64,000 nt of DNA, from positions 64,001 through 128,000 of IMG/VR virus record IMGVR_UViG_3300037475_000032. One strand, written 5' to 3'. The first letter of the stretch is position 1. Every line of letters starts with the position of its first letter. This DNA is from a virus. The position numbers were made by a program, and so were the translations under genes. Of this stretch, positions 13,581-47,701 are shown in pieces. The notes under the pieces were generated by a model, which searched no databases, was not told the origin of the DNA, and was given only the letters and a program-made list of their open reading frames with translations.

Positions 13581-14399
13581 ATGGATCGGCCTTCCCAATA
13601 CCAGCGCTACCTCCAGTCTGAGCACTGGAGGGGCACGAAGGAAGCCTTCTGGAGCCAAGTTGAGAGGGCTTGTGAGGTATGTGGGAGCGAACATCAGCTA
13701 GAGGTGCATCACTGCTCCTACGCAAGGATCGGACGCGAGGAGTGGGGAGATCTAGTCGCTCTCTGTCGCCGCTGCCACGAGGCCGTCCATAGGCTCATTG
13801 AGAATGGTCAGGCCGAGCTTGAGAACGCTCATCTAGTACTCGATGGAGAAACGCCTGCATCGCCCCTGAGGATGCGTGGGAGGGTTAGGAGGGGCGATGT
13901 CTTGCAGGCCGACTCGGCAAAGCGACCCTTCGCGGCCAGTAGCGTCCCGCTCTTTGTCGAAGATGGCAAGACCTACACAGTCTCGGACCTAGACCACATC
14001 GCCACGCACATGCTCTGGATGCAGGGTGTTGGGGAGCACCGAATCCTCTTTACTCGTGCGCAGTGGAGGAACCGACTGACACCTGAGCTATTCGCCTCCG
14101 GGGACGTGATGGCCCCAGATCCCTCCTACACCTACGACCGCCATCACAACAGCATCGCGGGCATGTACAACCGCACCCATCCCGAAGGCCGTCAGTGGAA
14201 TAGTGAGGAGGAACGCAAAGAGTCGGGGCGCTCCTTCTACCGCAACACCAAAGTCACGGAGCATCGCGCTGTCGGCAAGTTCGTTTCGTCCTCGGCCCCA
14301 ACAATCACGAGGAACCTCACTAAACCGCTCTCCAAGCTAGAGATTGCCCTGATGGAGGCTGAGGAGAGGCGCGCAAAGAAAATCTTGAAGGCGGGGTAG
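13581..14399 (+). CDS. HNH endonuclease domain fused to an unknown domain
   Basis: YLQSEHW..CEVCG..VHHCSY..LVALCRRCH. Confidence 0.75.
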   Translation: MDRPSQYQRYLQSEHWRGTKEAFWSQVERACEVCGSEHQLEVHHCSYARIGREEWGDLVALCRRCHEAVHRLIENGQAELENAHLVLDGETPASPLRMRGRVRRGDVLQADSAKRPFAASSVPLFVEDGKTYTVSDLDHIATHMLWMQGVGEHRILFTRAQWRNRLTPELFASGDVMAPDPSYTYDRHHNSIAGMYNRTHPEGRQWNSEEERKESGRSFYRNTKVTEHRAVGKFVSSSAPTITRNLTKPLSKLEIALMEAEERRAKKILKAG

Positions 14400-14413
14400 T
14401 ATTTTGCTATCCT
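14385..14413 (+). promoter_or_regulatory. sigma70-type promoter of the RNA array
   Basis: TTGAAG-N17-TATCCT. Confidence 0.55.
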
Positions 14414-14533
14414 TCCGTGGCGTAGGATATGAAGCACTTATGCAGAGCTATTTTGGACACCTGAATATCGAAGCAAAGGCTGGTTCGCCAGTCTCATAGC
14501 TCCTGGTCCCATATCACCACGATAGGTCCCAGG

Positions 14534-14573
14534 AGCCCTCCGAGAAAGATTTCTCAGGAGGGCTTCAACTTTT
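14534..14573 (+). terminator. terminator-like hairpin in the array leader (possible attenuator)
   Basis: AGCCCTCC-GAGAA..TTCTC-GGAGGGCT followed by TCAACTTTT. Confidence 0.6.
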
Positions 14574-14645: not shown

Positions 14646-14718
14646 GCCCTTGTAGCCCAACGGACAAGGCACTCGCCTTCTAAGCGAGCGATTGGGGGTT
14701 CGATTCCCTCCAAGGGCG
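14646..14718 (+). tRNA. tRNA-Arg(TCT)
   Basis: cloverleaf, CTCGC ctTCTaa GCGAG. Confidence 0.93.
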
Positions 14719-14899
14719 CTACCGGCTTTACTCCCACCGGACATACTCAACGGGAGTGCGCAGGGTAAAAACCTACGTTGGCAGCGGTAACCATACCGCA
14801 ATGCGGGGATGTGCTCCCGTGGCCCCTAAGCCTAACAGCCGGGGTCTAGTTGCCACAGTCGAGGTCGCGCCCGGAAAAGTAGTGTCCTGCGTTCAACAT

Positions 14900-14983
14900 G
14901 CGTGTCAGGTGACTATCGGTTTGTCTCAGCGGGCTGTAACCCCGTGGCCTCTGGCTTGGAAGGTTCGACTCCTTCGGCACGCA
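14900..14983 (+). tRNA. tRNA-Tyr(GTA), atypical D arm
   Basis: ctGTAac, variable arm, TTCGA. Confidence 0.8.
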
Positions 14984-14987
14984 CTCT

Positions 14988-15070
14988 GCGCAAATGATGG
15001 AATGGTAGACATGCTGTCTTGAGGAGGCAGTGCCCTAACGGGCGTGAGGGTTCGACTCCCTCTTTGCGCA
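14988..15070 (+). tRNA. tRNA-Leu(GAG)
   Basis: cloverleaf, long variable arm. Confidence 0.92.
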
Positions 15071-15074
15071 TCAT

Positions 15075-15156
15075 GCCGAAGTGATGGAATGGTAGACGTG
15101 CCACGCTTAGAACGTGGTGCCCTTGTGGCGTGCGGGTTCGACTCCCGCCTTCGGCA
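15075..15156 (+). tRNA. tRNA-Leu(TAG)
   Basis: CCACG ctTAGaa CGTGG. Confidence 0.93.
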
Positions 15157-15158
15157 CT

Positions 15159-15231
15159 TGCAGTAAGGTGGTCTGGATGACCATTTGTGGCTCATATCCA
15201 CAAGAGGAGAGTTCGATTCTCTCTGCTGCTA
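15159..15231 (+). tRNA. tRNA(CAT) Met, atypical
   Basis: TGTGG ctCATat CCACA; 1:72 mismatch. Confidence 0.75.
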
Positions 15232-15234
15232 TAC

Positions 15235-15316
15235 GTCTCTGTGGTGGAACTGGCAGACACGCACGGTTCAAACCCGTGTGCCATTTGGCGTGAGGGTTCG
15301 ACTCCCTCCAGGGACA
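15235..15316 (+). tRNA. tRNA-Leu(CAA)
   Basis: CACGG ttCAAac CCGTG. Confidence 0.93.
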
Positions 15317-15326
15317 TGTAGTACGA

Positions 15327-15399
15327 GGGGCTATAGCTCAGTTGGGAGAGCATCGCGCTGGCAGTGCGAGGGTCAGGGGTTCGAGTCCCCTTAGCTCCA
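15327..15399 (+). tRNA. tRNA-Ala(GGC)
   Basis: G3:U70, ctGGCag. Confidence 0.95.
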
Positions 15400-15499
15400 T
15401 CGTCGCTTCCGGGTTGCCCGTGCCAGCGGGGACCGGACAAACACACTCCCTGGCAGGAGTGGAACAATACGGCCACAAGTGCCGGGCGGATGAAGTTTA

Positions 15500-15573
15500 C
15501 AGAACGTGGCGCAGCTTGGTAGCGTGCTCCCTTGGGGTGGGAGAGGTCGCGGGTTCAAATCCCGCCGTTCTGA
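15500..15573 (+). tRNA. tRNA-Pro(GGG)
   Basis: cloverleaf. Confidence 0.93.
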
Positions 15574-15577
15574 CTGA

Positions 15578-15648
15578 CGGGGACAAGTGTTATGGCCGCA
15601 CGGGGCGTTTGGGGCGCTCTAGTCAGAGTTCGATTCTCTGGTCCCCGA
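15578..15648 (+). tRNA. tRNA-Pro(TGG)
   Basis: cloverleaf. Confidence 0.88.
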
Positions 15649-15746
15649 TAGCGTTGATGGTAAGTCGTGTCTAGGTGACAGGTGCCGGATCACCACTCAT
15701 TGAGTGCCGGAACAACATCGAGTCAACCGTCGCGGTCAACGCATAG

Positions 15747-15820
15747 CAGGATATGGCGCAGTCTGGTAGCGCGCTCCCCTCGGACGGGAGAGGTCGGAGG
15801 TTCGAATCCTCTTATCCTGA
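15747..15820 (+). tRNA. tRNA-Pro(CGG)
   Basis: cloverleaf. Confidence 0.93.
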
Positions 15821-15921
15821 TAGTCGGAAACCCTCGCGCAAGGGCGTATTGGAAGGGAGTCATGACCCCGAAGACATCGGAAGTAGCGGACAAAGGTACG
15901 CCTACCCGGTGCGGCTAACAT

Positions 15922-15993
15922 GCCTACATGGTGTAAGTGGTATCATCCTGACCTGGTACGTCAGTGTCCCGAGTTCGATTCTCGGTGTAGGCT
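15922..15993 (+). tRNA. tRNA-Thr(GGT)
   Basis: CTGAC ctGGTac GTCAG. Confidence 0.9.
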
Positions 15994-15994
15994 T

Positions 15995-16186
15995 ATGGTA
16001 TGCAAGAGTGGAAAGAGAACATATCCCTCGAAGCGGCAAGCTGCTAAGCGAGCCGTGAATCTCAGCATCCAGGAAGGGAAGGGTCTTTGGCCGTACAAGT
16101 GCCCGGAATGTCCCGATTGGCACTTGACATCGAAACGGCCGTCGAAGCGCTCTTACAAGTGCCGCGATGGGACCCGCAACCGATAG
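15995..16186 (+). CDS. small Zn-binding phage protein
   Basis: MVCKSGKRTY..YKCPECPDWHLTS. Confidence 0.7.
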   Translation: MVCKSGKRTYPSKRQAAKRAVNLSIQEGKGLWPYKCPECPDWHLTSKRPSKRSYKCRDGTRNR

Positions 16187-16189
16187 CTT

Positions 16190-16261
16190 GCCTGCTAGGT
16201 GTTTACGGTGGCACACTTCACTCGTAATGAAGAGGACGGGGCTCGAATCCCCGAGTGGGCT
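16190..16261 (+). tRNA. tRNA-Thr(CGT)
   Basis: CTTCA ctCGTaa TGAAG. Confidence 0.85.
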
Positions 16262-16266
16262 TAGAT

Positions 16267-16335
16267 GGGGTGTAGGTCATGGTGACCAATCGGATTCCAA
16301 ACCCGAAGGCGAGCGTTCGATTCGTTCACGCCCCG
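16267..16335 (+). tRNA. tRNA-Trp(CCA)
   Basis: ttCCAaa loop, TTCGA. Confidence 0.85.
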
Positions 16336-16445
16336 CTCGACGTGCTGCAAGCGACGGCTTGTAGAGTTGTGGTGCTGTAGTCGAAGGCACGCGCCAGCAA
16401 CAATGCTGCCCGTGGACAGGCTTAAAACCTCTCTCGCGGGCTTTT

Positions 16446-16519
16446 GGTTCCTTAGCTCAGTTGGTTAGAGCGCCGCCCTGTCAAGGCGGAGGTCACGGGT
16501 TCGAGTCCCGCAGGGACCG
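16446..16519 (+). tRNA. tRNA-Asp(GTC)
   Basis: canonical cloverleaf. Confidence 0.95.
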
Positions 16520-16525
16520 CTTCAT

Positions 16526-16597
16526 GCGTTCGTATGGTTAGTGGTAGACCCTCCGACTTTTAATCGGAAAGCTGGGGTTCGATTCCCCACGAACGCA
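16526..16597 (+). tRNA. tRNA-Lys(TTT)
   Basis: TCCGA ctTTTaa TCGGA. Confidence 0.9.
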
Positions 16598-16767
16598 CTA
16601 GACGTGGTGACCGTCTAAGAAGGTGTAGGCCCTTGTTAGGGTTGAACCTCGTAAACTCACCACCGCCCGGTTCCCTACACCGGCAAAGGCACGGTAGGGC
16701 GTGTCATGACAATAGAGGGGTTCACGTTCCCGTCAGGGAGTCGTGCTTCGTCTCGGCGGTTCTACTT

Positions 16768-16842
16768 AGACCCTTAGCTTAGATGGCCTAAAGCGTCGGT
16801 TTTACACACCGAAGATCCTGGGTTCGAAACCCAGAGGGTCTA
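16768..16842 (+). tRNA. tRNA-Val(TAC)
   Basis: cloverleaf. Confidence 0.92.
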
Positions 16843-16883
16843 CTTGCGTCAGGTTCTTTTCCTCCTTTCTTCCTGACGCTTTT

Positions 16884-16955
16884 GGGCGACTAGCTCATTG
16901 GGAGAGCGCCTGCGTGACATGCAGGAGGTACGGGGTTCGATCCCCCGGCCGCCCA
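16884..16955 (+). tRNA. tRNA-Val(GAC)
   Basis: cloverleaf. Confidence 0.92.
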
Positions 16956-16966
16956 CTGTAGTACAT

Positions 16967-17389
16967 GGGCCTGACAGGCTTCGACTTCATGAGAGGCTGT
17001 TGGCGTCATGCAGCGGTATGGACACACCTTAAGGTCCAACGTCATAATCGGCAACGATACAGACACGCTAGCAATCCCGGCATCGTTCCTTGCAGGTGAG
17101 CAGATGGCTCCTGCGGAGGTTCACGTCGGAGGCGCAGCACTCGCACTGGTTTAGACCCCAGTGCCGGGTTTCTCACACTCCCTGTGAACAGAAAGTGTGA
17201 GTGGTGCATCAGTGCAAGCTCGTACCGTAGTAATGCAGGATGGTAGCCCCGCGCGTTTTCCTAGTTTCCCGATATGAACTAGGTGGTGGAAAAGATGGCG
17301 GCAAGCCCGTCGTCCCCGGTAGTGAAAGCTGCTAGACAATGACCCAAAGAAGCGCATGGAACACGAGGGTTCGATTCCCTCCAGGTCCA
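16967..17389 (+). ncRNA. ssrA: tmRNA
   Basis: 5' GGGCCTGACAGGCTTCGAC, 3' GAGGGTTCGATTCCCTCCAGGTCCA with G3:U70; tag ORF 17050-17154 ending AALALV*. Confidence 0.93.
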
Positions 17390-17393
17390 CTAT

Positions 17394-17465
17394 CTCCTTA
17401 TAGTCCAATGGATAAGACGACCGCCTCCTAAGCGGTAGATTCAGGTTCGACTCCTGATGGGGAGA
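17394..17465 (+). tRNA. tRNA-Arg(CCT)
   Basis: cloverleaf. Confidence 0.93.
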
Positions 17466-17565
17466 CTCTTGTAGCGCCCTAGCCATTGCGAAGGGCTCGG
17501 TTGCGGGGAACGGACAGATAATCTCGCTTCCAAGTGGTCTGTCACTTGTGGTGTCTATGAGAAAT

Positions 17566-17653
17566 GGAAAGACGGCAACGGCTGGCGACGCAGCTTCCCT
17601 GCTAAGGAAGTGGTCCTTCATTGGGCCTATGGGTTCGATCCCCATTCTTTCCG
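17566..17653 (+). tRNA. tRNA-Ser(GCT)
   Basis: long variable arm, G73. Confidence 0.88.
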
Positions 17654-17805
17654 CTCAATCTTGGTCGTAGGCTATTCCCTACCACAGCTAGAGTTCGAAC
17701 TGGCAAGGGGAGTAAGACGATAGCCCCGCTGCGGAGCGGATCAGCCCGGATCTCGTGCCTACACAAAACGGACAGTAAGTAGCCGGGGCCTACCAAGATG
17801 TTCAT

Positions 17806-17877
17806 TCTCCTGTGGCGCAATGGCAGCGCGGCAGCCTGTTAAGCTGACGGTTGAAGGTTCGAGTCCTTCCGGGAGAG
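17806..17877 (+). tRNA. tRNA-Asn(GTT)
   Basis: cloverleaf. Confidence 0.93.
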
Positions 17878-17879
17878 CT

Positions 17880-18233
17880 ATGGTTCGTAACTGTAAGAAG
17901 CACGGAGAGGTGAGACATCGATCTCGCGGAAAGCGAGGTTGGCGTTGTACTCTCTGCGCCAACGAATCAGTCTCGAACAGTCGCAGAAAGATCAAGCGTA
18001 TCCTTGTGGAAGAACACGGAAGCGCTTGCAAGATCTGTGGCTACAATCGTTGTATCGCGGCCCTTCACTTTCATCATGTCGATCCAGAGACTAAGAGCTT
18101 TGGGGTCGCGGCAGGAGGAAGTGCAAGGTCGCTCAAGAGAGCACGCGAAGAGGCCGCCAAGTGCGTCCTTTTGTGCTCGAACTGCCACGCCGAGATAGAG
18201 GCTGGCATTACGTCCCTGTGGCCGAATGGTTAG
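17880..18233 (+). CDS. HNH endonuclease
   Basis: CKICGY..ALHFHHVDP..KCVLLCSNCH; 3' end overlaps tRNA-Cys. Confidence 0.88.
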   Translation: MVRNCKKHGEVRHRSRGKRGWRCTLCANESVSNSRRKIKRILVEEHGSACKICGYNRCIAALHFHHVDPETKSFGVAAGGSARSLKRAREEAAKCVLLCSNCHAEIEAGITSLWPNG

Positions 18234-18282
18234 GTACGCGGCTGCAACCCGTGGTATGCAGGTTCGACTCCTGTCAGGGACT
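18212..18282 (+). tRNA. tRNA-Cys(GCA)
   Basis: cloverleaf, U73. Confidence 0.92.
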
Positions 18283-18326
18283 TGCAGGTAGCGGCGTCTG
18301 CCTGAGATGGCTCAACGCCGCGCTTT

Positions 18327-18412
18327 GGAAGGTGACCGGCATGGACGAGGACACCGCCTTGAAAGCGGCTGGGGACTAACCGCCCTCAAGGGTTCGATTC
18401 CCTTACCTTCCG
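18327..18412 (+). tRNA. tRNA-Ser(TGA)
   Basis: long variable arm. Confidence 0.88.
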
Positions 18413-18443
18413 CTCCTATCCCCGCAAAGCAAAGGATTGTATC

Positions 18444-18857
18444 TTGAGAGCAGTCATGTACCTCTTTGCCAACAAAGGGCTCGGCATGTCGTCGGGCAAG
18501 ATGTCGGCACAAGTGGCCCACGCAGCGGTCGAGGCATTTCACATCAGCGATCCCGAGTTGGTTGCTCAGTGGTACGTCGGCGGCCATTACTGCAAGTACG
18601 TGATGGCAGCGGAGGATGAAGTTCACCTTCACACCATCAAGTACTACCTGGAGCAGCGGGGCTTCAAGACGAAGCTCATTGTCGATGAGGGTCACACGGA
18701 GATCCGTCCTCATACGGCTACGGCTCTGGGTGTCGAGATCGTGGACAAGGATGACGCTCATGTCGCTGCCACGTTCGGAGACTTCAAGATCTACCGCGAT
18801 CCTCCAGTGCGTCCTAAACCGGATAAGCTGAGGCGTCGTAGGTGGTATCACTCATAG
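18444..18857 (+). CDS. peptidyl-tRNA hydrolase, Pth2 type
   Basis: LGMSSGKMSAQVAHAAV, IVDEGHTEI, TALG. Confidence 0.9.
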   Translation: MRAVMYLFANKGLGMSSGKMSAQVAHAAVEAFHISDPELVAQWYVGGHYCKYVMAAEDEVHLHTIKYYLEQRGFKTKLIVDEGHTEIRPHTATALGVEIVDKDDAHVAATFGDFKIYRDPPVRPKPDKLRRRRWYHS

Positions 18858-18882
18858 CAGTCAAGTCAAGGAGAAAAGAACA

Positions 18883-19086
18883 GTGGCACTACTCGCAAGA
18901 CAGGACAACACCCCCCCCGCACTCGCCGCTGAGCTAGATGCTCACAAGCAGCGCTATCAGGCGGGCCGCGCATCGGTCATCGAGCGTGGGACTCAGAGGG
19001 TCGCCCAGATCAAGCACCTCCAGAAGGAGCTTGAGGCTGAGGCTTCCGCCCATCAAGCTGTGTTGGAGCAAGCACACCAGTCGTAA
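18883..19086 (+). CDS. small coiled-coil protein
   Basis: AAGGAG RBS. Confidence 0.65.
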   Translation: MALLARQDNTPPALAAELDAHKQRYQAGRASVIERGTQRVAQIKHLQKELEAEASAHQAVLEQAHQS

Positions 19087-19104
19087 GACAGCAAGGGAGT
19101 CGTC

Positions 19105-19320
19105 GTGTTTACCGAAGACGAGATAAAGGCATTGGTCGCGCACGCTGTACACATGGCACGCACGACGACTCCTGGAAATGTCTGCAATGAGGCAGTCGTA
19201 CAGCAGGTCATGAAGGAAGAGTTCGTGCCCGGACAGGGATGGAAGTCCAAGTACTTCACATCCGATGAGCGCCCGGAGACGGACTTGATCGATCTTTGGC
19301 TCTCAGAGCCACGTATCTAG
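19105..19320 (+). CDS. hypothetical protein
   Basis: GGGAG RBS. Confidence 0.6.
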   Translation: MFTEDEIKALVAHAVHMARTTTPGNVCNEAVVQQVMKEEFVPGQGWKSKYFTSDERPETDLIDLWLSEPRI

Positions 19321-19407
19321 GAAGGTACGCGAATGGTTAGCACGCTGCTTGGAAAGCAGTTGGTCGTTTAAACGCACGGCTTGTGGGTTCGAGTCCCATG
19401 CCTTCCG
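19320..19407 (+). tRNA. tRNA-Ser(GGA)
   Basis: long variable arm. Confidence 0.88.
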
Positions 19408-19411
19408 CTCT

Positions 19412-19496
19412 GGATAGTACGCGAATGGAAAGCAGCCTGCCTCGAAAACAGGTGTAGGGTGAAAGTCCTTTCTGGGTTCGAGTCCCAGGCTATCCG
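19412..19496 (+). tRNA. tRNA-Ser(CGA)
   Basis: long variable arm. Confidence 0.88.
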
Positions 19497-19499
19497 TAA

Positions 19500-19571
19500 G
19501 GCGATTTAGCTCACTGGTAGAGCGGCACGCTGAAAACGTGCGCGTACCGAGTTCGATTCTCGGAATCGCCA
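19500..19571 (+). tRNA. tRNA-Phe(GAA)
   Basis: cloverleaf. Confidence 0.93.
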
Positions 19572-19594
19572 TCCATCCTGGTCCATAATAGGTG

Positions 19595-20077
19595 ATGCAA
19601 CCAGGAGATTTCATCCTTTGTCACCGTAAGGGGATCGTCAGCAGTATCATCCGTCTTGGTGAGCGCATACGCTTCCGTTCGGGTGACAGATGGTCCCACG
19701 TCGCCATCGTGGAGAACGATGAATGGATCATCGAGGCTCTGACGAAAGGCGTAGTGCGTTCACACATCTCAGTCTATGACAAGACCGAGAAGCTGCTTGT
19801 CAGCAGCGGCCTAGATGAGCACGACCGCCCGCAGGCTGTCGCCTTCGCTCAAAGCTGTGTGGGGCAGAAATACGGATGGCTCATCATCTTCGGAATCGCT
19901 CTGCGCTTCCTCACTCCGGGTCGAGGTCTTTGGTTCGGCTCAGATGGCAGTGAGATTTGCAGTGGCCTTGTGGCCCAGGCGTTGGTGCGTGGCCCGAAGA
20001 TCTTCAAGGTCAACCCTGCTAGCATCACTCCAGCGGAGTTGGCGGAAGAATACGCTGTACCGCACAAGAGCAAGTAG
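19595..20077 (+). CDS. permuted papain-like (YiiX/YebB, NlpC/P60) amidase
   Basis: QPGDFIL, WSHVAI, GQKY, ICSGLV. Confidence 0.85.
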   Translation: MQPGDFILCHRKGIVSSIIRLGERIRFRSGDRWSHVAIVENDEWIIEALTKGVVRSHISVYDKTEKLLVSSGLDEHDRPQAVAFAQSCVGQKYGWLIIFGIALRFLTPGRGLWFGSDGSEICSGLVAQALVRGPKIFKVNPASITPAELAEEYAVPHKSK

Positions 20078-20150
20078 GGGTTGGTAGCTCAACTGGCAGA
20101 GCAGGGGCCTCTTAAGCCCAAGGTTGAGGGTTCGATTCCCTCCCAACCCA
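20078..20150 (+). tRNA. tRNA-Lys(CTT)
   Basis: cloverleaf. Confidence 0.93.
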
Positions 20151-20155
20151 CTCAT

Positions 20156-20227
20156 AGGAACATGGTGAAATGGTAATCACGACTCTCTGATACGGAGTTA
20201 TTCTGGGTTCGATTCCCAGTGTTCCTA
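20156..20227 (+). tRNA. tRNA-Ile(GAT)
   Basis: cloverleaf. Confidence 0.92.
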
Positions 20228-20233
20228 CTGCAT

Positions 20234-20304
20234 GGCCCGGTCGTCCATGGGTAGGACCGTTGTTTCTCAGGCAACAAAACAGGGTTCGAGTCCCTGTCGG
20301 GCTA
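20234..20304 (+). tRNA. tRNA-Glu(CTC)
   Basis: cloverleaf. Confidence 0.9.
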
Positions 20305-20462
20305 CTACTAATCAACCTCCTTGGAGGTAGATACAGGTCGGAGGTTCAGGTTGTCGCGCGCAGCCATCACGATCTCTGACCGGCCCGTGGATTCCCGTAT
20401 GAGGTGAGGTAAAATCTCACTGTGCCGTAACGGGATGGTGGAGGAAGCGACGGCGATTACGA

Positions 20463-20536
20463 CGCGGAGTGGAGCAGTCTGGAAGCTCGCTTGGCCCATA
20501 ACCAAGAGGTCGGGGGTTCGAATCCCTCCTCCGCTA
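20463..20536 (+). tRNA. tRNA-fMet(CAT)
   Basis: CGCGGAGTGGAGCAG, C1:72 mismatch. Confidence 0.9.
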
Positions 20537-20600
20537 TACGGATGAAAACATGCACATGTACCCACTTCATGTGTACGTTTTCCTCCAATGATGTGTACAT

Positions 20601-20674
20601 TGCTCGTTAGGGGAATTGGCAGACCCGCTCGGCTCTGAACCGAGAGTATCCAGGTTCGACCCCTGGACGAGCAG
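20601..20674 (+). tRNA. tRNA-Gln(CTG)
   Basis: U1-A72, ctCTGaa. Confidence 0.92.
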
Positions 20675-20680
20675 CTTCTT

Positions 20681-20752
20681 TCCGGGATCGTACAATCGGC
20701 AGTACGGCGGACTCTGAATCCGCAAATCGAGGTTCGAGCCCTTGTCCCGGAG
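20681..20752 (+). tRNA. tRNA-Gln(CTG)
   Basis: U1-A72, ctCTGaa. Confidence 0.92.
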
Positions 20753-20847
20753 CTAATACAGCGTCACCGTTGGGTGACCGGAGGTCCGTCAGATGGCGGC
20801 CGTACGGGTGAGCGCTACCGCTTTCGGGTGAGAGTCCCGACTTACAT

Positions 20848-20942
20848 GCGTCTGTAGCTGAATGGTAGAGTCGGCCTCAAAAACCGGCCACAGCACTGGG
20901 TTTTCACCCCAGCGGATGCGGGTTCAAGTCCCGTCAGGCGCA
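20848..20942 (+). tRNA. tRNA-Glu(TTC) with about 20-nt D-loop insertion
   Basis: CTGGG ttTTCac CCCAG; 95 nt. Confidence 0.8.
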
Positions 20943-20947
20943 CTCAT

Positions 20948-21022
20948 TGGGGAATAGAATATGCTGGTATGTTCGCCTGACTTTGAATCAGGAGGCCGTG
21001 GGTTCGATTCCTACTTCCCCAG
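20948..21022 (+). tRNA. tRNA-Gln(TTG)
   Basis: cloverleaf. Confidence 0.9.
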
Positions 21023-21026
21023 CTTT

Positions 21027-21129
21027 GCCCTTGTGGCGGAATCGGCATACGCATCCGGCTTAAACCCGGCCACGCGAGCTTCCTCTCAACAAGGTCTCGC
21101 ACTTGAGGGTTCGACTCCCTCCAAGGGCA
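21027..21129 (+). tRNA. tRNA-Leu(TAA), oversized variable arm
   Basis: ctTAAac; 103 nt. Confidence 0.85.
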
Positions 21130-21207
21130 CTTCGCCCCAGATCCGCCTCTGCTCGATACTGCGACGGCAGTGAGTATGCGCCTGGGGCCACGAATGTAGT
21201 GAACCAT

Positions 21208-21280
21208 GGCGTGGTTCGTATATCGGTCAATACTCCAGGTTGTGAACCTGGCAAGATGGGTTCGATTCCCATACCTCGCC
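21208..21280 (+). tRNA. tRNA-His(GTG)
   Basis: encoded G-1, C73. Confidence 0.9.
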
Positions 21281-21282
21281 CT

Positions 21283-21356
21283 GTGAGCGATCCCGAAGTG
21301 GTCGAGGGTCCGGGTTGTGATTCCGGCGTAGGCGAGTTCGAGTCTCGTCGCTCACC
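21283..21356 (+). tRNA. tRNA-His(GTG)
   Basis: cloverleaf, C73, no encoded G-1. Confidence 0.88.
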
Positions 21357-21385
21357 CTTTTCTTCGTGCTCCTCATCCGTAATGG

Positions 21386-21724
21386 ATGATGTTCCGCAAA
21401 GGCAATACGGTCCCACTCAGAGAGTACTTCGAGGCTCTACGTGTTGCCGACCAACGAGCCCTCCAGATCAAGGAGGTAGCGGACAAGGATGCACTCAGGC
21501 TGGCTCGTGAGATCCAGACGTACAAGGACGAGAAGGCTAACGAGCTACGCAGTCAGATCGAGCGAGAACAAGGCGAACGTGCCACCAAGAAGGAACTGCA
21601 AGATCTGGCAGACCGCATCCAGGAGGAACGCCACACGGGCGGTCTCGATACACGCACATTGGTCGTTAGCATAGTCCTGATTCTTGTGGGTATAGCTGCG
21701 ATCATCGGGCCACATATTCACTAA
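21386..21724 (+). CDS. coiled-coil protein with C-terminal TM helix
   Basis: LVVSIVLILVGIAAII. Confidence 0.7.
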   Translation: MMFRKGNTVPLREYFEALRVADQRALQIKEVADKDALRLAREIQTYKDEKANELRSQIEREQGERATKKELQDLADRIQEERHTGGLDTRTLVVSIVLILVGIAAIIGPHIH

Positions 21725-21728
21725 CTTT

Positions 21729-21802
21729 GCTCCTCTGGTGTAACGGTTAGCACAACTGGTCTTATAAGCAGTCAGGTCGGGGTTCAAATCCTCGGGGGAG
21801 TA
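21729..21802 (+). tRNA. tRNA-Ile(TAT), bulged anticodon stem
   Basis: ACTG(G)T ctTATaa GCAGT. Confidence 0.75.
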
Positions 21803-21814
21803 CTTGCAGCATAC

Positions 21815-21889
21815 GGGTGTGTACCAAATGTTGGCTTTGGAACTGGCTCTTAACCAGAGTACACGCAGGTTCGATTCCTGTCACGCCCA
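21815..21889 (+). tRNA. tRNA-Lys(CTT), atypical
   Basis: CTGG ctCTTaa CCAG. Confidence 0.8.
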
Positions 21890-21890
21890 T

Positions 21891-22025
21891 GGGTGGTCCG
21901 CGAGGACATTGCGGGTTCGAGTCCCGTCATGGACACAACGCCGTTACCTGTGTGTACAGCAGGTGCGCTCGATTCTAGATAGAGCGAGGCCAAGTGCTCG
22001 TGTATGCTAACTGGTAAAGCAGCCC
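21891..22025 (+). ncRNA. circularly permuted tRNA-like RNA (YrlA-like topology)
   Basis: Variable arm, T arm and acceptor 3' strand precede the acceptor 5' strand and D arm. Confidence 0.6.
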
Positions 22026-22033
22026 TAACGCTT

Positions 22034-22108
22034 GTCGCCATCGTCTAGCCTGGTTCAGGACGCGGCCCTCTCACGGCCGAAACACGGGTTCAAATCCCGT
22101 TGGCGGTA
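22034..22108 (+). tRNA. tRNA-Glu(CTC)
   Basis: cloverleaf. Confidence 0.93.
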
Positions 22109-22135
22109 CTTGCTCAGATGTGGTATCCTACCGCC

Positions 22136-22771
22136 ATGAGTCGCGCTAGACCATGGAGGGATCAGGAGACCGGACAAACCCACTGGTTTGACTACCGTTC
22201 TTCCTCCGCCACAGTCGAGCAACTTGAGATCTTGGCCGATGCAGAGGGTCTTGATCTTGACGACCTACTTGACGAGGGCCTGTCGCAAAGGCAGGTGTTG
22301 TTTCGGCTACATGCCGTCACTAACCTCATCCCGGAGAGAGTCCTGGAGCGCAGGCAAGAACGCCTCGAACGCTCCCAGGTCGAACCGATCTGCCGGATAT
22401 GCAGCTTGTACGGATGGGAGTGCGAGGGTAAGATCACTCGTCACCATTTCGTGCCAAGGTGGCTCATGCGAGAGCTTGATAGCTACCAGACCTACGCCGC
22501 GAAGGCGAGGTGTACCATCCCCGTGTGTGTCGGTCGCCACCGCGATCTTCACTACAGGGAAAGTGATATTGACAAGAGCATCGTTCCGTACCTAACGGCT
22601 GAGGAGAAGGAGCTAGCACGCATCCTACTCCAAGAGCTAAAGGACGAGCGTCCAACGATCTACGAGTTGATCGGCGGCGGAAGTACTGCGAGCTACGAGT
22701 ACCAGCTTGTCCGAGACTTTAGGCGAGGAGGTTTCGAGTCAGTGACACATGGAGAAATTGAAGGTCCATAG
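22136..22771 (+). CDS. HNH-like hypothetical protein
   Basis: CRIC..ITRHH..PVCVGRHRDLH; TATCCT-N6-ATG leaderless start. Confidence 0.65.
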   Translation: MSRARPWRDQETGQTHWFDYRSSSATVEQLEILADAEGLDLDDLLDEGLSQRQVLFRLHAVTNLIPERVLERRQERLERSQVEPICRICSLYGWECEGKITRHHFVPRWLMRELDSYQTYAAKARCTIPVCVGRHRDLHYRESDIDKSIVPYLTAEEKELARILLQELKDERPTIYELIGGGSTASYEYQLVRDFRRGGFESVTHGEIEGP

Positions 22772-22811
22772 CCTTACGCCGTGAGTGAGGGCGAAAATAC
22801 TCACTCAGCTA

Positions 22812-22884
22812 CTCCTCGTGGTCCAGTGGATAAGACGCTGCCCTGCGAAGGCGGAGATCGGAGGTTCGAGTCCTCCCGAGGAGA
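22812..22884 (+). tRNA. tRNA-Arg(GCG)
   Basis: CTGCC ctGCGaa GGCGG. Confidence 0.9.
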
Positions 22885-22887
22885 CTA

Positions 22888-22959
22888 GATGCGGTGGCCC
22901 AAGTGAGAGGCAGCCCGACAAGGGAAGAGTTGCCGGAATCCAAACCCGGCTCGCATCTG
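22888..22959 (+). ncRNA. tRNA-like RNA with collapsed anticodon arm
   Basis: AGATGCGG/TCGCATCT stem, D-like arm, CCC gacaa GGG, GCCGG/CCGGC arm. Confidence 0.5.
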
Positions 22960-22973
22960 CTATTGTAGTTCTT

Positions 22974-23863: not shown

Positions 23864-23867
23864 GTAT

Positions 23868-24457: not shown

Positions 24458-24461
24458 TCAT

Positions 24462-39575: not shown

Positions 39576-40226
39576 ATGCAACTCATCGGAATCAACGGCT
39601 TCATGGGGTCGGGGAAGGACACGACCTACGGCTTCATCGCCAAGCACCACAGGGGCGCTTTGCGCGTGGCCTTCGCCGACAAGCTCAAGAGTATCGCGGC
39701 TCTGGCTATCGGATTCGATCCAGAGATCGACACACAGGGACTTGTCGATCTCATGAACGAGTGCAAGGAATCCTGGGACTTCGAGGTCACCAAGAGGCTT
39801 GCCACGATGCCGGGCGAGCAGGCGTGCATGGAAGTTACGCACTTCACCGGCCGTCAGTACCTCCAGTGGCTAGGAGCCAATGCCCGAGTCGTGTTCGGAG
39901 ACACCTTCTGGATCGATCAGGTACTCCCTCAGCCCTACGAGGTCTGGAAGGATCATCGTAAAAGCATCGACAACGACCGTGTACTGAGGGAACGCTACCC
40001 CGACACGGACCTTGTAGTCGTGACGGACGTGCGCTACCCTAACGAGGCGGAGCGCGTGCAGCAGCTTGGGGGAAGGGTCTGGGAGGTTGTGAGACCAGGG
40101 CTCACTAGCGATGGTCATAGCTCCGAGATCCCTCTGCCAAGGGAGCTAGTTGATACAGTGATTCAGAACGATGGAAGCCTGGCGGAACTGTCCGCTACGG
40201 TCAAGGAGGCGTTGGAGAATGGCTAG
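39576..40226 (+). CDS. deoxynucleoside monophosphate kinase
   Basis: IGINGFMGSGKDT, FADKLK, LQWLG, TDVRYPNE, HSSE. Confidence 0.9.
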   Translation: MQLIGINGFMGSGKDTTYGFIAKHHRGALRVAFADKLKSIAALAIGFDPEIDTQGLVDLMNECKESWDFEVTKRLATMPGEQACMEVTHFTGRQYLQWLGANARVVFGDTFWIDQVLPQPYEVWKDHRKSIDNDRVLRERYPDTDLVVVTDVRYPNEAERVQQLGGRVWEVVRPGLTSDGHSSEIPLPRELVDTVIQNDGSLAELSATVKEALENG

Positions 40227-40983
40227 AGAGGCACTACAGCTTGTTAGCAGGGCCGATATCACGGAACCGATTCCTCAGCCGCAGGCTGCTCCAAAGCTCA
40301 GGCTCGTGCCGTCGTCGGGCCACGATGGGAAGGCCAAGTTCGCTATCGACATTGATAGCATCCTCTACGACTTCTCGACTCCGGCTCGTGAGGCGTTCTT
40401 GAAGCTCTCGGAAACGACGGGAGACAGGGGCCTGCTTCGTGGCACGTACATCTCATGGGTCGAGTGGCGCACGCCAGCGGATGTCTGTGGCCTTGAGACA
40501 TGGATGGAGGTCATCTCCATGTGCCATGCCCCGGAGGTCATCTTGCGTCAGAAGCCCTTTGCGGGCGCAGTCGATACCCTCCAGGCATTGGTCAGCGAGG
40601 GCTACGATCTCATGTACTGCTCGAACCGCAATGAGGAAGCAGCAGACGCGACCCGTCAGTGGCTCCAGCAGGAGGGCTTCCCTCTTGGCGACCACGTTGA
40701 AGTGAGATGCACGATGGAGGACAAGTGCTCGTACCTGGCCGAGTGCCAGTACATCATCGATGATCGTCCCAAGACCCTCATTGACTTCATCCATTCACCC
40801 AACTGGGACCAGGCGAAGGGCGAGCGCAAGGGCCTGTCGATCATGTACGAGTACAACCGTGCTCTGACCGACATCCCGAACATCTTCCTTTCACCCACAT
40901 GGGCGGGATTGGCCGGATGGTTGGTCCGCAAGGGCTTCCTCCCCACGCCGCCACACACTGCATTGGAGACACATGCCGGATAG
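40219..40983 (+). CDS. HAD 5'(3')-nucleotidase-like protein
   Basis: IDIDSILYDF, SNR, IIDDRP, YN. Confidence 0.8.
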   Translation: MAREALQLVSRADITEPIPQPQAAPKLRLVPSSGHDGKAKFAIDIDSILYDFSTPAREAFLKLSETTGDRGLLRGTYISWVEWRTPADVCGLETWMEVISMCHAPEVILRQKPFAGAVDTLQALVSEGYDLMYCSNRNEEAADATRQWLQQEGFPLGDHVEVRCTMEDKCSYLAECQYIIDDRPKTLIDFIHSPNWDQAKGERKGLSIMYEYNRALTDIPNIFLSPTWAGLAGWLVRKGFLPTPPHTALETHAG

Positions 40984-41569: not shown

Positions 41570-42043
41570 ATGGCAGCGAAGCTATTCATCCTCGTAGGCG
41601 TCCCCGGATGCGGCAAGAGCACATGGGCCAGAAGGGTCCTTGGTGGCGTGCATGTAAGCAGCGATGAAATCCGTCAGGAGCTATTCGGAGACGAGTACAA
41701 CGCCAAGCAGAACCAGCAGGTCTTCGAGCGTTTCTACAAGGAAATCGACAAGTTCCTCCTGACCGGCATCAACGTCATCGCCGATGCTACCAACCTGAAC
41801 AGCTTCGCTCGCACTGAGCTACGTCGCATCGCCGACATAGTAGGGTGCGAGACTCACTTGTTCTTCTTCACCAACGTTGAGCAGGCGCTTCTTCGCAACG
41901 CCGAGAGAGACGGGGAGCAGCATGGTTCCAAACGAGTCCCCAACGAGGGCATGACGCTCATGCTGGAGAAGTACGAACTTGCGAGACGCGATATCCCACT
42001 GGAGTCGTACAACTCTGTCACCTACATAGGAAGCGTGTCATGA
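41570..42043 (+). CDS. polynucleotide kinase-like P-loop protein
   Basis: GVPGCGKST, SSDEIR, DATN, RNAER..VP. Confidence 0.85.
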   Translation: MAAKLFILVGVPGCGKSTWARRVLGGVHVSSDEIRQELFGDEYNAKQNQQVFERFYKEIDKFLLTGINVIADATNLNSFARTELRRIADIVGCETHLFFFTNVEQALLRNAERDGEQHGSKRVPNEGMTLMLEKYELARRDIPLESYNSVTYIGSVS

Positions 42044-44203: not shown

Positions 44204-44209
44204 GGAGTA

Positions 44210-47200
44210 ATGTATATGTGGGACCCGAACAGCATCAGTCAGGATCAGTTGCACGAATACCGCAACGCCGCTGAATCGGCATGGGGCGATGACACACGTC
44301 ATCCTGACTTCGTAGGGCACCCAGACCCAAGTGCGGGCCAGTGCTACGTCACGTCCAAGTGGCTCACGGGCGAGCTTGGCGGTCATGTTGGGTTGAAGAA
44401 TGGTCATTACTTCTGGGTCTCACCGGACAAGAGCCACGTCATTGATCTGACCGGCGATCAGTTCTCTAGTCCACCACCTTCGGGCAGGATGAACTTCCTG
44501 GACGGCCAGCCCGTGGATTCAGAGGACGAAGCCTATGAGCCCGAGACACGCGGATGGCGACCAGGACCCATCATGTTCAAGCGTGCTAATCACCCGCTCT
44601 ACAAGGGATTCAGGATCAAGGCCGATCCTCAGCCTCCGCAGGATCAGAGAGATTGGGAAGACCTGGAACAGTCACCTCGCATCAACGACCGTCTCCAGCG
44701 CTTCACTCGTCGTGCGAACGCTGCTCTCACCAATCCCACGAGTCGCACAGCCGATCTCATGGGAATCGGGAACCCGATGAGTGAACCGCAGGCAGAAGAG
44801 GATCTGAACCAGCGTTACCTTCACGATACAATGAGTGATCTGCAAATGACGCAGGAACCAATCGACCGAGAGTACAAGTTCTTCTATGGACACGGACAAC
44901 TACACGTATCACCCGTTCATTCTCACGACGAACTCCGAGATCACTCTGGGACATCCCCTGACGAGAACGGACCAATCGCCGTGGGTTACGTTCATGTTCA
45001 CGGAGGAGATGCTGTTTGGTCTATTGAGACTAACGTTGCCGCTCGCGGACTCGTTCGCGTCCTTAAGGACTACAGCAAGACTGTGGGTTGGAAATGGAAC
45101 GGAGTGGTTGGAGGCGACGGAGCACCCATCCATGATGACTTCGGCGCTACGAAGTCTATGTGGTACAAGGCCAACGCTGATGGAGAGGTACAGATCGCAG
45201 ATGGACCTTTCCGAGGAGCCTCCCGCATCGACATCGTTGGCAGGACCGCCCATTATGCTCGATCCGCGTCTACCAGCAGTTATGGCGATGCTCTCAGAGA
45301 ATGGGCCGACGACTTCGGATACCGCCTAGCCGAGTACCCAGGCGGCACGGACATGACCGACCGCACAAAGAACTGGGAGGACTTGGAGCTTCACAACAAC
45401 TCCGACCCCGAATGGGACCCGGAGAAGGCATACGACGGAGCGCCTATTGGTCCTCTCACATGCGGCACATGCGGCTTCGAGGCACCTGACTTCAATACCC
45501 TCATCCTCCATCGCAGACTGCACGAGGGAGAGGACGAAGACCGCATCCAGGATGGTCACTTCCCGACGCTCAACGACCGTGACGATACGCTACCGCTTAG
45601 GCGCAGGAACGTCAACCCTACGGCGTCACCTCTTGCCTCTTTCCGCGAAGCATCAGTGGTGGATGGCTTCGACCTGTACGCGAGCCTGTGGGGATACGAC
45701 CGTGACGAGGGATTGCGCTTCTACGGTGGTTACCTGAATGGTCAACTTCTCGGCTACGGGGTCGTGCGTCCCGGCGATGATGGAGCCGAGGTCGTCATGA
45801 TCCACTCATCCATCCCCAACGTCGGCATCGGTACGGTACTCGCTGAGAAGATCAAGCAGCACTACCCGGTTCTGACCACGCACGCCGATAGTCCCGAGGG
45901 CGAACGCCTTGCCAAGCGCATGGGGATGGTCAATGTCGAGGGTCAGCTATACAAGTGGGCCGCAGGCGAAGAACCGAAGGACATGATCCAGGCCCCCGTC
46001 CCGTTTATCTACGACATCCAGCAAGACCACATCACCACGGGTCATCCGGGCATGAAGACATCGGACATCATGGGCCAGTTCACGCCCGGTGGTATAGTTG
46101 AGGGCTACTACGAGCCGGGCGGCAAGGTGGTCATCAACACGTCCACCAACATGCCGTACAGCACGTACCACATGATGCAGCTATGGTATTGGACGCACCC
46201 ACAAATGCAAATCGTCGGCCTTGAACTAGAAGACCAGCAGGGCAAGAGGCAGAAGCTAGCGGCTACTGAGATCGGCCCCTACCTCAAGACGCTCGTGGGA
46301 ACCGACGCCGCTGCATGGAACGCCTACCAGGCGCTACGCAATGCAGGCGGGAAGGTCTATGCCGTAGGTGGCGCAGTACGCGATGCTCTGCTTGGCAAGG
46401 ACCCCAAGGATATTGACCTGATGGTCTCCGGCGTTCCGCCCGAGCAGGTCTCTCATGTCCTTGAACAGCTTCCTGGCCGCGTAGACTTGACTGGTAAGCG
46501 CTTCGGTGTCTACCGCTACAAGACAAAGGGTCAAGAGGTCGAGATTGCTCTGCCACGCGAGGACACCTACGATGGTGAGCGTCGCGGTCAGGGCAAGATC
46601 ACCGTTGATCCTAGCCTTCCGGTTGAGGATGACCTAAGGCGTCGTGACTTTACTGTCAACAGCATGGCCGTGGATCTTGACACAGGTAAGCTCATCGACC
46701 CATACGGAGGCGAGAAGGATGCCGAGTCCCACACGCTTAGAACCACTCACCCTTCGTCCTTCGAGGAGGACCCAACTCGCCTTGTACGTGCGCTTGTGGC
46801 TTCTTCCCGCCACGGTCTGGTTCCAGACGAGAGGACCCGTCAGGAGATGGCAGAGAACGCATCGCGCCTCGACCGTGAGTCCCCCGATGCCCTTAAGCAG
46901 CAGCTAGACAAGCTGCTTGAAAGCCCCAATCCGGCAGGGGCACTCAGACTAGCCCATGACACAGGTGTCCTGCGTCATCTATTCCCTGAGGTCGATGCGA
47001 ACTTCGACTACGATCAGAACAACACGCATCACTCATACTCGCTGGGTGAGCACTCACTGAACGTGCTCGACAACGCGAGTCGTCTGACTACGGACCCAGA
47101 TCTTCGTCTCGCTGCCCTGCTCCACGATCAGGGCAAGCCGGACTCGGCATGGGTAGACCCGGAGAAGGGCACGACTCACTACTACGAAAAGTTCATCGAC

Positions 47201-47701
47201 GGCCAGCCTGTAGGAGCCGATCACGCACAGGTGGGAGCCGACATGGCCGAGAAGCGCCTGCGCGAGACCTACAACTTCCCGGTGGCTCGCATCCGTCGTG
47301 TGCGTGAACTGATTGAACACCACATGTTCCCGGCCTTCTCGTCACCCAAGGGCGCACGCAAGTTCCTCAACCGTGTAGGCGACCACGCTGACGATCTCCT
47401 TACGCTGCGCGAAGCCGACATGACCGGCAAGGGGCAGAGCGAGGAGGAAGTCGCTGAAAGGACCAGCGCCGATAGGATGCGCAATCTCGTGGAGCAGGCC
47501 CGTCAGGCAGGCGCACCCACAGATCAGTCGTCCCTCAGTCTCAACGGCAACGACATTGTTGGCATGGGAGTGAAGCCCGGACCACAGGTCGGGCAGATCC
47601 TCCGCCAGTTGACCAATGATGTGGTTGAGGAACCGCAGTTGAACGACAGAGACGCCCTCACTCAGCGAGCACAGGAGTACATCAATGCACTTCCAGCATA
47701 G
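44210..47701 (+). CDS. multidomain protein: YunG-like, GNAT-like, CCA-adding enzyme (class II NTase) + HD
   Basis: GQCYVTS..HYF..IDLTGDQF; GIGT; VGGAVRD..KDID, DLRRRDFTVN, FEEDPTRLVR, LLHDQGK. Confidence 0.9.
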   Translation: MYMWDPNSISQDQLHEYRNAAESAWGDDTRHPDFVGHPDPSAGQCYVTSKWLTGELGGHVGLKNGHYFWVSPDKSHVIDLTGDQFSSPPPSGRMNFLDGQPVDSEDEAYEPETRGWRPGPIMFKRANHPLYKGFRIKADPQPPQDQRDWEDLEQSPRINDRLQRFTRRANAALTNPTSRTADLMGIGNPMSEPQAEEDLNQRYLHDTMSDLQMTQEPIDREYKFFYGHGQLHVSPVHSHDELRDHSGTSPDENGPIAVGYVHVHGGDAVWSIETNVAARGLVRVLKDYSKTVGWKWNGVVGGDGAPIHDDFGATKSMWYKANADGEVQIADGPFRGASRIDIVGRTAHYARSASTSSYGDALREWADDFGYRLAEYPGGTDMTDRTKNWEDLELHNNSDPEWDPEKAYDGAPIGPLTCGTCGFEAPDFNTLILHRRLHEGEDEDRIQDGHFPTLNDRDDTLPLRRRNVNPTASPLASFREASVVDGFDLYASLWGYDRDEGLRFYGGYLNGQLLGYGVVRPGDDGAEVVMIHSSIPNVGIGTVLAEKIKQHYPVLTTHADSPEGERLAKRMGMVNVEGQLYKWAAGEEPKDMIQAPVPFIYDIQQDHITTGHPGMKTSDIMGQFTPGGIVEGYYEPGGKVVINTSTNMPYSTYHMMQLWYWTHPQMQIVGLELEDQQGKRQKLAATEIGPYLKTLVGTDAAAWNAYQALRNAGGKVYAVGGAVRDALLGKDPKDIDLMVSGVPPEQVSHVLEQLPGRVDLTGKRFGVYRYKTKGQEVEIALPREDTYDGERRGQGKITVDPSLPVEDDLRRRDFTVNSMAVDLDTGKLIDPYGGEKDAESHTLRTTHPSSFEEDPTRLVRALVASSRHGLVPDERTRQEMAENASRLDRESPDALKQQLDKLLESPNPAGALRLAHDTGVLRHLFPEVDANFDYDQNNTHHSYSLGEHSLNVLDNASRLTTDPDLRLAALLHDQGKPDSAWVDPEKGTTHYYEKFIDGQPVGADHAQVGADMAEKRLRETYNFPVARIRRVRELIEHHMFPAFSSPKGARKFLNRVGDHADDLLTLREADMTGKGQSEEEVAERTSADRMRNLVEQARQAGAPTDQSSLSLNGNDIVGMGVKPGPQVGQILRQLTNDVVEEPQLNDRDALTQRAQEYINALPA

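Follow-up and report, generated by a model that had tools for sequence, protein, structure and literature searches.

Ribonuclease P (RNase P) is regarded as a universal housekeeping ribozyme of cells. Here we describe a 295-nt RNA, apparently a homologue of class A RNase P RNA (M1 RNA, encoded by rnpB in Escherichia coli; Rfam RF00010), that lies inside a large tRNA array of a phage, and a CCA-adding enzyme encoded in the same window, a 64,000-nt stretch corresponding to bases 64001-128000 of IMG/VR record IMGVR_UViG_3300037475_000032 (160,765 bp; G+C content, 57.6%). In the literature, we found no paper on a phage RNase P RNA, and the only viral case was the inactive RNase P-like RNA of camelpox virus (PMC3001073). 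Like the phage RNA, it is virus-encoded and resembles RNase P RNA; however, its structural similarity is only partial and the virus that encodes it is eukaryotic and has no tRNA array, whereas in the phage RNA the bacterial catalytic core is retained in full. Arrays of tRNA and transfer-messenger RNA (tmRNA) genes have been described in cluster C1 mycobacteriophages (Bixzunavirus; PMC1475703, PMC5966550, and PMC10264068). TinyTim, a member of this cluster, has ~30 co-oriented tRNA genes, which are mostly CCA-less and keep C74, a tmRNA (73.5 bits), and an annotated peptidyl-tRNA hydrolase (Pth); CCA-less tRNAs, tmRNA, and Pth are thus already known in this phage group. Phage T4 depends on the RNase P and CCA enzyme of its host, and it has polynucleotide kinase (PNK) and RNA ligase 1. 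RNase P processing of the T4 tRNA precursors has been reported (PMC11143913). The window phage resembles T4 in having CCA-less tRNA genes and in encoding a PNK-like kinase and a phosphatase, but differs in having its own RNase P RNA homologue and CCA enzyme, with no ligase found in its genome.

The record has direct terminal repeats at its ends, indicating that the genome is complete, and its DNA came from soil metagenomes. A large terminase, portal, RIIA/RIIB, DnaB-like helicase, and GH25 lysin are encoded, and the phage is probably a lytic soil phage. Its portal shares ~40% identity with the portals of cluster C mycobacteriophages (Bixzunavirus), Gordonia phage Skog, and Rhodococcus phage Finch. 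The genome is a distant relative of the cluster C mycobacteriophages, among which TinyTim and other cluster C1 members (portal 40% identical) have related myovirus-type genomes of ~155 kb. When the array was compared by megablast with 50,697 deposited phage records, only single-tRNA matches were returned, and no near-identical phage was found. For comparison, we used two related complete phages (G001 and G004), which were reached via the CCA-enzyme fusion protein and the portal, and TinyTim, Skog, and Finch as the outgroup.

RNase P RNA homologue in the tRNA array

RF00010 aligned across the full model to positions 23569-23870 with 38.6 bits and an E-value of 1e-10. The RNA fills its gap exactly, since a tRNA-Phe-like gene ends at 23572 and tRNA-Thr(UGU) starts at 23868. 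Because the flanking tRNAs abut both ends, the 295-nt RNA would be released by the processing of its neighbours. The aligned parts were P1-P3, GAGGAAGUUCGGG (CR-I), GCAA (J5/15), CGGGU (L15), AGAAAGAUGG (J18/2), GACAGAAUCCCGGCUA (CR-V), and CR-IV. As in class A RNase P RNA, P1, P2, and P3 are stacked, CR-I and CR-V form a P4 that contains a bulged U (GAGGAAGUUCGGGA pairs with UCCCGGCUA), and J5/15 GCAA comes after P5. The GGU motif of L15, which in this class pairs with the 3' end of the tRNA, the P18 hairpin with its GNRA loop, and the J18/2 motif are likewise shared. J3/4 (GAGGAA) and J2/4 (ACAGAA) are present, and P1-P5, P15/L15 GGU, P18, and the CR-I, CR-IV, and CR-V motifs are all kept (Table 1). 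In contrast to class A RNase P RNA, the phage copy is encoded inside its own substrate array, is 295 nt long, and has no cognate rnpA gene. Moreover, the canonical specificity domain (P7-P14 with CR-II/CR-III) was not found in it; cmscan skips this region, which is replaced by ~95 nt with three short hairpins. The minimum free energy (MFE) z-score of the RNA was -2.4.

In G001 and G004, an RNase P RNA was likewise found directly upstream of tRNA-Thr(UGU) (46.2 bits and 56.9 bits), and another relative scored 52 bits; TinyTim, Skog, and Finch gave no RNase P RNA match. Among the clade members G000, L024, G001, and G004, compensatory substitutions were observed in P2, P3, P5, P15, and two of the hairpins that stand in for the specificity domain. 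Hairpin C carries a 40-nt insertion in L024 and, at the same spot, a 106-nt replacement in contigs from RNA libraries. A motif scan of IMG/VR yielded ten homologues, all located among tRNA genes. In a covariation count by script, P1, P2, and P3 form in all 11 phage sequences from unrelated sequences, and complementarity was higher between cognate than between non-cognate strands (P2, p = 4e-5; P1, p = 2e-4). P4 occurs in two coordinated versions, the alternative in the relatives being AAAGUCCGGA/UCCGGCUUA, and GAUGCAA and GGU are retained in the homologues. One homologue (L018) reached 173.9 bits, which is over the Rfam cut-off, and another matched the archaeal RNase P RNA model. The phage RNase P RNAs thus form a graded series, with canonical members at one end and strongly reduced ones at the other. 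In three soil metatranscriptome studies, RNA-library contigs hold the RNase P RNA copy of a close relative; word depth in these libraries was higher over the tmRNA and RNase P pieces, which is only a weak hint, and parts of the array were without cover.

The first-pass annotation, made from the sequence alone, had placed an RNase P RNA inside the array, and this is borne out by synteny, covariation, and the catalytic-core motifs, at a sub-threshold RF00010 score. These comparisons indicate that the 295-nt RNA is very probably a genuine, selectively maintained homologue of RNase P RNA. That it is also an active subunit acting on the phage pre-tRNAs seems probable, though distinctly less certain.

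ARAGORN predicted 46 tRNAs and a tmRNA at 14646-25075, every one on the plus strand, and, with introns allowed, an extra tRNA-Leu(UAA) with a 31-nt insertion (21027-21130). Rfam added two tRNA or tRNA-like genes (20848-20942 and 23499-23572). The claimed co-oriented array of about 48 CCA-less tRNAs for all 20 amino acids was thus recovered, with 49 genes. No encoded CCA followed any of the 41 tRNAs with full-length RF00005 matches; 28 of them continue as N73-CU and 13 as N73-U. The leaders of the same tRNAs have the consensus CAU, with U at position -1 in 28/41. The (C)U trailer rule holds in G001 and G004 too, and the gene order of the array is conserved in relatives. Compared with the TinyTim array, that of the window is larger and shows N73-(C)-U instead of N73-C-G, and of these two phages only the window phage has the RNase P RNA homologue and the CCA enzyme.

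Several further features of the array were noted. The strict N73-(C)U trailers with CAU-favouring leaders resemble a lineage-specific processing signal. The 95-nt gene at 20848-20942, which ARAGORN missed, is class II tRNA-like and conserved in three phages (L042:12789-12883; L043:13711-13805); its acceptor, T, and variable arms covary, its 31-39 pair is mismatched, and the anticodon seems to be CAU in G004 and CAA in the other two phages. The tRNAs at 21729-21803 and 24536-24604 have anticodon loops of unusual size, for which ARAGORN reported 2-nt 'anticodons'. The gene at 23499-23572, directly upstream of the RNase P RNA homologue, is the second in the array to resemble tRNA-Phe(GAA), and its T loop is non-canonical. 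Three spacers of ~100 nt (15649-15746, 16337-16445, and 15411-15484) were skipped in the RNA-library contigs of relatives; since the flanking tRNAs are joined directly there, these spacers are insertions varying between strains. By MFE z-scores, most of the ~100-nt spacers fold no better than shuffled sequences, the exceptions being 24858-25003 (-3.6), 21130-21208 (-2.9), and 23049-23302 (-2.6). A promoter and terminator scan of the array gave no more sites than shuffled sequence. No relatives were found in a search with the 163-aa open reading frame (ORF) at 23966-24457, which is not conserved beside the RNase P RNA in G001 or G004.

CCA-adding enzyme fusion protein and end-healing candidates

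The first-pass annotation had reported a CCA-adding enzyme/HD domain, which forms the C-terminal third of a 1163-aa multidomain protein; this assignment held, with the CCA models outranking poly(A) polymerase. The best structural relatives were CCA-adding enzymes (T. maritima, E 2e-29), followed by E. coli poly(A) polymerase (3e-18). The class II motifs GGxVRD, DxD, RRD, and EDxxR align with the T. maritima CCA enzyme, and motifs A, B, and D are intact. The best NCBIfam match was the actinobacterial CCA transferase TIGR02692 (positions 21-459 of 466), with 218 bits against an equivalog cut-off of 439; pcnB (122 bits) and A-adding (75 bits) models followed, all under their equivalog cut-offs. 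The protein resembles the HD-type CCA-adding/repair enzymes (E. coli Cca; actinobacterial TIGR02692) in the order of head, neck, HD, and tail and in the class II motifs, but differs in scoring under the equivalog cut-off and in being fused behind ~715 residues. As judged from these matches, the nucleotidyltransferase is closest to actinobacterial CCA-adding enzymes, not to poly(A) polymerase.

In the predicted structure, the N-terminal 715 residues comprise several confidently folded domains. This part had no match among the 50,697 deposited phage records, its first 700 residues had no PDB sequence relatives beyond a zinc-finger-like stretch, and residues 585-712 matched nothing in Protein Atlas. 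Foldseek matches of the N-terminal part to gelsolin were rejected as spurious (TM 0.10), and the GNAT domain was the only one assigned by structure. An exhaustive search retrieved 131 relatives, and the CCA/HD module was present in 34 of the 37 long ones. Both G001 and G004 encode the fusion, whereas TinyTim, Skog, and Finch lack it. Consequently, the RNase P RNA and the CCA enzyme were both found in 3/3 clade genomes and neither in 3/3 outgroup phages, in a small sample of related genomes.

The PNK-like kinase, phosphoesterase, HAD phosphatase, and cyclic-phosphate receiver reported elsewhere in the window were all found (Table 1). The end-healing that the first-pass annotation had built on them was not borne out: its basis is the HD domain together with a PNK-like kinase and a HAD protein encoded as a split pair, and a ligase was not found. 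No RNA ligase of the RtcB, Rnl1 (T4), or Rnl2 type (RNA_ligase) is encoded in the genome; for this reason, an end-healing role, HD domain included, is possible but weak. We give nearly even credence to the alternative that the kinase, the HAD protein, the metallophosphoesterase, and the cREC protein serve nucleotide or DNA metabolism or unrelated functions. Besides the missing ligases, this alternative accounts for the dNMP kinase gene of nucleotide metabolism between the kinase and HAD genes, for the weak HAD matches, which include nucleotidases, and for the location of the candidates amid head and packaging genes outside the array. However, the kinase and the HAD protein both match phage 'polynucleotide kinase' families, the kinase matches the kinase region of bacterial Pnkp, the cREC_REC domain has been described from RNA-repair contexts, and sealing could come from a host ligase.

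Table 1 Features of the tRNA array, the RNase P RNA homologue, the CCA-enzyme fusion protein, and other genes of the window. Positions are nucleotides of the window unless residues are given.
Feature	Position	Strand	Evidence or remark
cREC_REC (cyclic-phosphate processing receiver) protein, just upstream of array	13201-13569	+	PF20274, E 1e-23
tRNA array, 49 tRNA(-like) genes, all 20 amino acids	14646-25075	+	ARAGORN and Rfam
tmRNA	16967-17392	+	ARAGORN, Rfam RF00023
HNH homing-endonuclease-like ORF inside array, start codon uncertain	17820-18233	+	PHROG 2255, E 2e-30
Pth2-type peptidyl-tRNA hydrolase	18444-18857	+	PF01981, E 2e-20
223-aa array-embedded protein	22100-22771	+	Conserved in relatives; no Pfam or PHROG family
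RNase P RNA homologue, 295 nt	23573-23867	+	RF00010
P1	23573-78/23858-63
P2	23580-86/23830-36
P3	23588-23608
CR-I and P4 5' strand	23608-21
P5	23622-26/23722-26
Specificity-domain replacement, ~95 nt between P5 strands	23627-23721	+	Unaligned by cmscan
Hairpin A (GAAA loop)	23628-45
Hairpin B	23646-64
Variable hairpin C	23687-99		Insertion site in relatives
J5/15 GCAA	23726-29		GGAUGCAA at 23722-29
L15 GGU	within 23770-83		CGGGUUGGGA
P18, CACGC-GCGA-GCGUG (GCGA loop)	23808-21
J18/2	23822-29
CR-V and P4 3' strand	23840-55
Metallophosphoesterase, adjoins portal gene	37807-39120	+	PHROG 20266/221
HAD-superfamily phosphatase-like protein	40171-40983	+	Weak HAD Pfam matches; PHROG 415 'polynucleotide kinase', E 1e-7
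P-loop kinase, polynucleotide-kinase-like	41570-42043	+	AAA_33, E 4e-22; PHROG 505 'polynucleotide kinase', E 4e-21; bacterial Pnkp kinase region, E 1e-11
1163-aa multidomain protein	44210-47701	+	Pfam, NCBIfam, structure comparison
YunG/papain-like domain	residues 14-88		Weak YunG match; conserved Cys, His, Asp
Further domain	residues ~218-376		Unassigned
C2H2-like zinc finger	residues 410-441		PDB sequence relatives
GNAT fold	residues 466-587		Z 14.0, rmsd 2.2 Å, 117 aligned
Conserved domain	residues ~590-712		Unassigned
Class II CCA-adding enzyme with HD domain	residues 716-1152 (46355-47665)		PolyA_pol head, PolyA_pol_RNAbd, HD, tRNA_NucTran2_2

Proposed tRNA maturation and alternative explanations

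Our observations are the genes, the absence of encoded CCA, the homology of the RNA and the conservation of its fold, and the joint presence of RNase P RNA and CCA enzyme in the clade. On this base, we infer catalysis, a protein partner, an order of processing, and a benefit (throughput, host independence, or escape from tRNA-directed immunity). On balance, we favour the reading that the phage supplies a class-A-derived RNase P RNA and a CCA enzyme for its own CCA-less array. The dense, operon-like array of ~50 CCA-less tRNAs and the tmRNA would be transcribed by the phage, and the RNase P RNA would be freed from the array transcript by the processing of the tRNAs abutting both sides. It would most likely pair with the RnpA of the host and cleave the uniform CAU leaders, and in tightly packed stretches, leader cleavage alone may be enough to separate adjacent tRNAs. 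Host nucleases would trim the (C)U trailers, and the phage CCA/HD enzyme would then complete the 3' ends; this enzyme could also rebuild damaged CCA tails. The tmRNA and Pth2 would contribute ribosome rescue and tRNA recycling.

A more specific version of this pathway is tentative. In it, the RNA would be a self-freeing, active ribozyme whose 3' end arises by the RNase P cut at tRNA-Thr and whose 5' end arises by 3' processing of the preceding tRNA, and which then dissects its own array. The CAU leaders and N73-(C)U trailers would be tuned to an enzyme poor in specificity domain, with CU replacing CC opposite the L15 GG. Together with the CCA/HD enzyme, this would provide a host-independent tRNA supply and repair of CCA tails clipped by immunity such as Cas12a3.

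Several points weigh against the favoured reading. The RF00010 score is far under the Rfam gathering score of 100, and the specificity domain, which reads the tRNA elbow, cannot be aligned to RF00010. A search of the phage genome for rnpA (PF00825) found no homologue, so that activity would need a host protein or the RNA alone. The evidence for expression consists of the RNA-library contigs of a relative, which document presence only and cannot show ends or levels. An actinobacterial host is likely, as judged from the portal relatives, the soil origin of the DNA, and the best CCA-enzyme model, which is the actinobacterial one. Finally, TinyTim runs a similar CCA-less array with a tmRNA and Pth but without an RNase P RNA or a CCA enzyme; because it manages without both, neither is strictly required. 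Accordingly, the earlier claim that the phage supplies its own 5' maturation and CCA addition stands in part: both are plausible, but only the RNA subunit was found, without rnpA and with a non-canonical specificity domain. Similarly, the parts of the proposed 'tRNA factory' are real, but CCA-less tRNAs, tmRNA, and Pth alone are insufficient for that name, since TinyTim has them too.

Another alternative concerns purpose and retains the same parts. We consider it quite possible, at somewhat less than even credence, that they serve capacity or autonomy, namely, a burst of ~50 precursors, adaptation of codon usage, or translation after host shut-off or RNA decay. The completeness of the tRNA set for the 20 amino acids and the conserved array order fit this view, as do the large arrays of related cultured phages without a known link to defence systems, and no anti-defence gene was identified beside the array. 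On the other hand, phage tRNAs have been shown to escape anticodon nucleases and retron effectors (PMC10264068 and PMC11555353), and immunity that clips CCA tails exists in the form of Cas12a3, for which the authors state that a viral countermeasure is not known (PMC12851939). A counter-defence purpose is plausible, and the phage CCA/HD enzyme would be an obvious candidate for the answer to CCA-tail clipping; throughput and host independence explain the same genes, and the capacity and counter-defence purposes are not exclusive.

It is unlikely that the RNase P-like RNA folds without cutting and serves as a sponge or decoy that skews tRNA maturation towards the phage, for instance by sequestering the RnpA of the host or by competition for pre-tRNAs. 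The replaced specificity domain, the low Rfam score, the absence of a phage rnpA, and the precedent of the inactive camelpox RNA (PMC3001073) would be compatible with such a role. However, the parts kept across diverged phages are precisely those of the catalytic core (the P4 bulged U, J3/4, J5/15, L15 GGU, J18/2, and J2/4), whereas a sponge for RnpA would not require every one of these elements, and the homologues grade into a fully canonical RNase P RNA of 174 bits in another phage array. The sub-threshold score of the 295-nt element and its large internal region unlike the family model might suggest a chance match or a host rnpB that was captured and is now decaying, but either is highly improbable given the synteny and compensatory changes in three diverged genomes, the helices conserved across ten phage homologues, and the E-value of 1e-10.

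If the favoured reading is true, this RNA, which lacks the canonical specificity domain and lies among its own substrates, would represent the first viral RNase P that is functional, and would offer a natural experiment in the minimal RNA needed for pre-tRNA recognition. Its pairing with the CCA/HD enzyme suggests that tRNA maturation can come under phage control at both ends, which bears directly on the recently described immunity directed at tRNA anticodon loops or CCA tails. Carrying tRNAs, an RNase P RNA homologue, a tmRNA, a Pth, and a CCA enzyme, the window phage would thus bring much of the tRNA-maturation machinery.

tmRNA, Pth2, and other genes of the array

The Pth2 that had been annotated in the array was confirmed, and the tmRNA was recovered as a divergent one. 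The tmRNA matched RF00023 with 44.3 bits (cut-off, 47; E 2e-16); at this sub-threshold score, its tRNA-like domain was solidly aligned at high posterior probability and its pseudoknots poorly. Its 3' end reads ...UCCA followed by CUA, and an encoded CCA tail is absent. According to the Rfam alignment, the tag frame lies at 17050-17154 and reads GNDTDTLAIPASFL...AALALV and a stop, with GNDTDTLAIPASFLAGEQMAPAEVHVGGAALALV as the full tag before the stop. The tmRNA tag of G004 (GNDDTLAIPASFL...THLALA and a stop) is partly alike. The tag proposed by ARAGORN (ASSYRSNAGW and a stop) was rejected as probably wrong in favour of the Rfam-alignment frame, which is partly common to G004. Pth2 matched PF01981 near full length (profile positions 2-114 of 115) with 73.5 bits, above the Pfam cut-off of 23, and the NCBIfam Pth2 model with an E-value of 5e-19, under the equivalog cut-off. 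A copy in the G004 array is 69% identical.

The 223-aa protein encoded at 22100-22771 is conserved at ~50% identity in the three clade phages, in each case within the tRNA array, has >185 relative clusters, and contains invariant CxxC...HH...CxxC...H motifs. Its model had a pLDDT of 87; VIA-align gave Z-scores of 4.3 or less, with the top rows enriched in HNH/His-Me nucleases, and a Foldseek search against the PDB returned nothing at E<=0.001. It is probably a His-Me finger nuclease and could be linked to the array. This nuclease-like protein and the 1163-aa GNAT-CCA fusion family are further candidates for tRNA-directed functions. In addition to the HNH homing-endonuclease-like ORF inside the array, another gene of this kind lies just before it (13461-14399), with paralogous copies in related arrays. 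The array-embedded 161-aa ORF at 19592-20077 matched PHROG 1128 and, weakly, the YaeF family of permuted papain-like enzymes.

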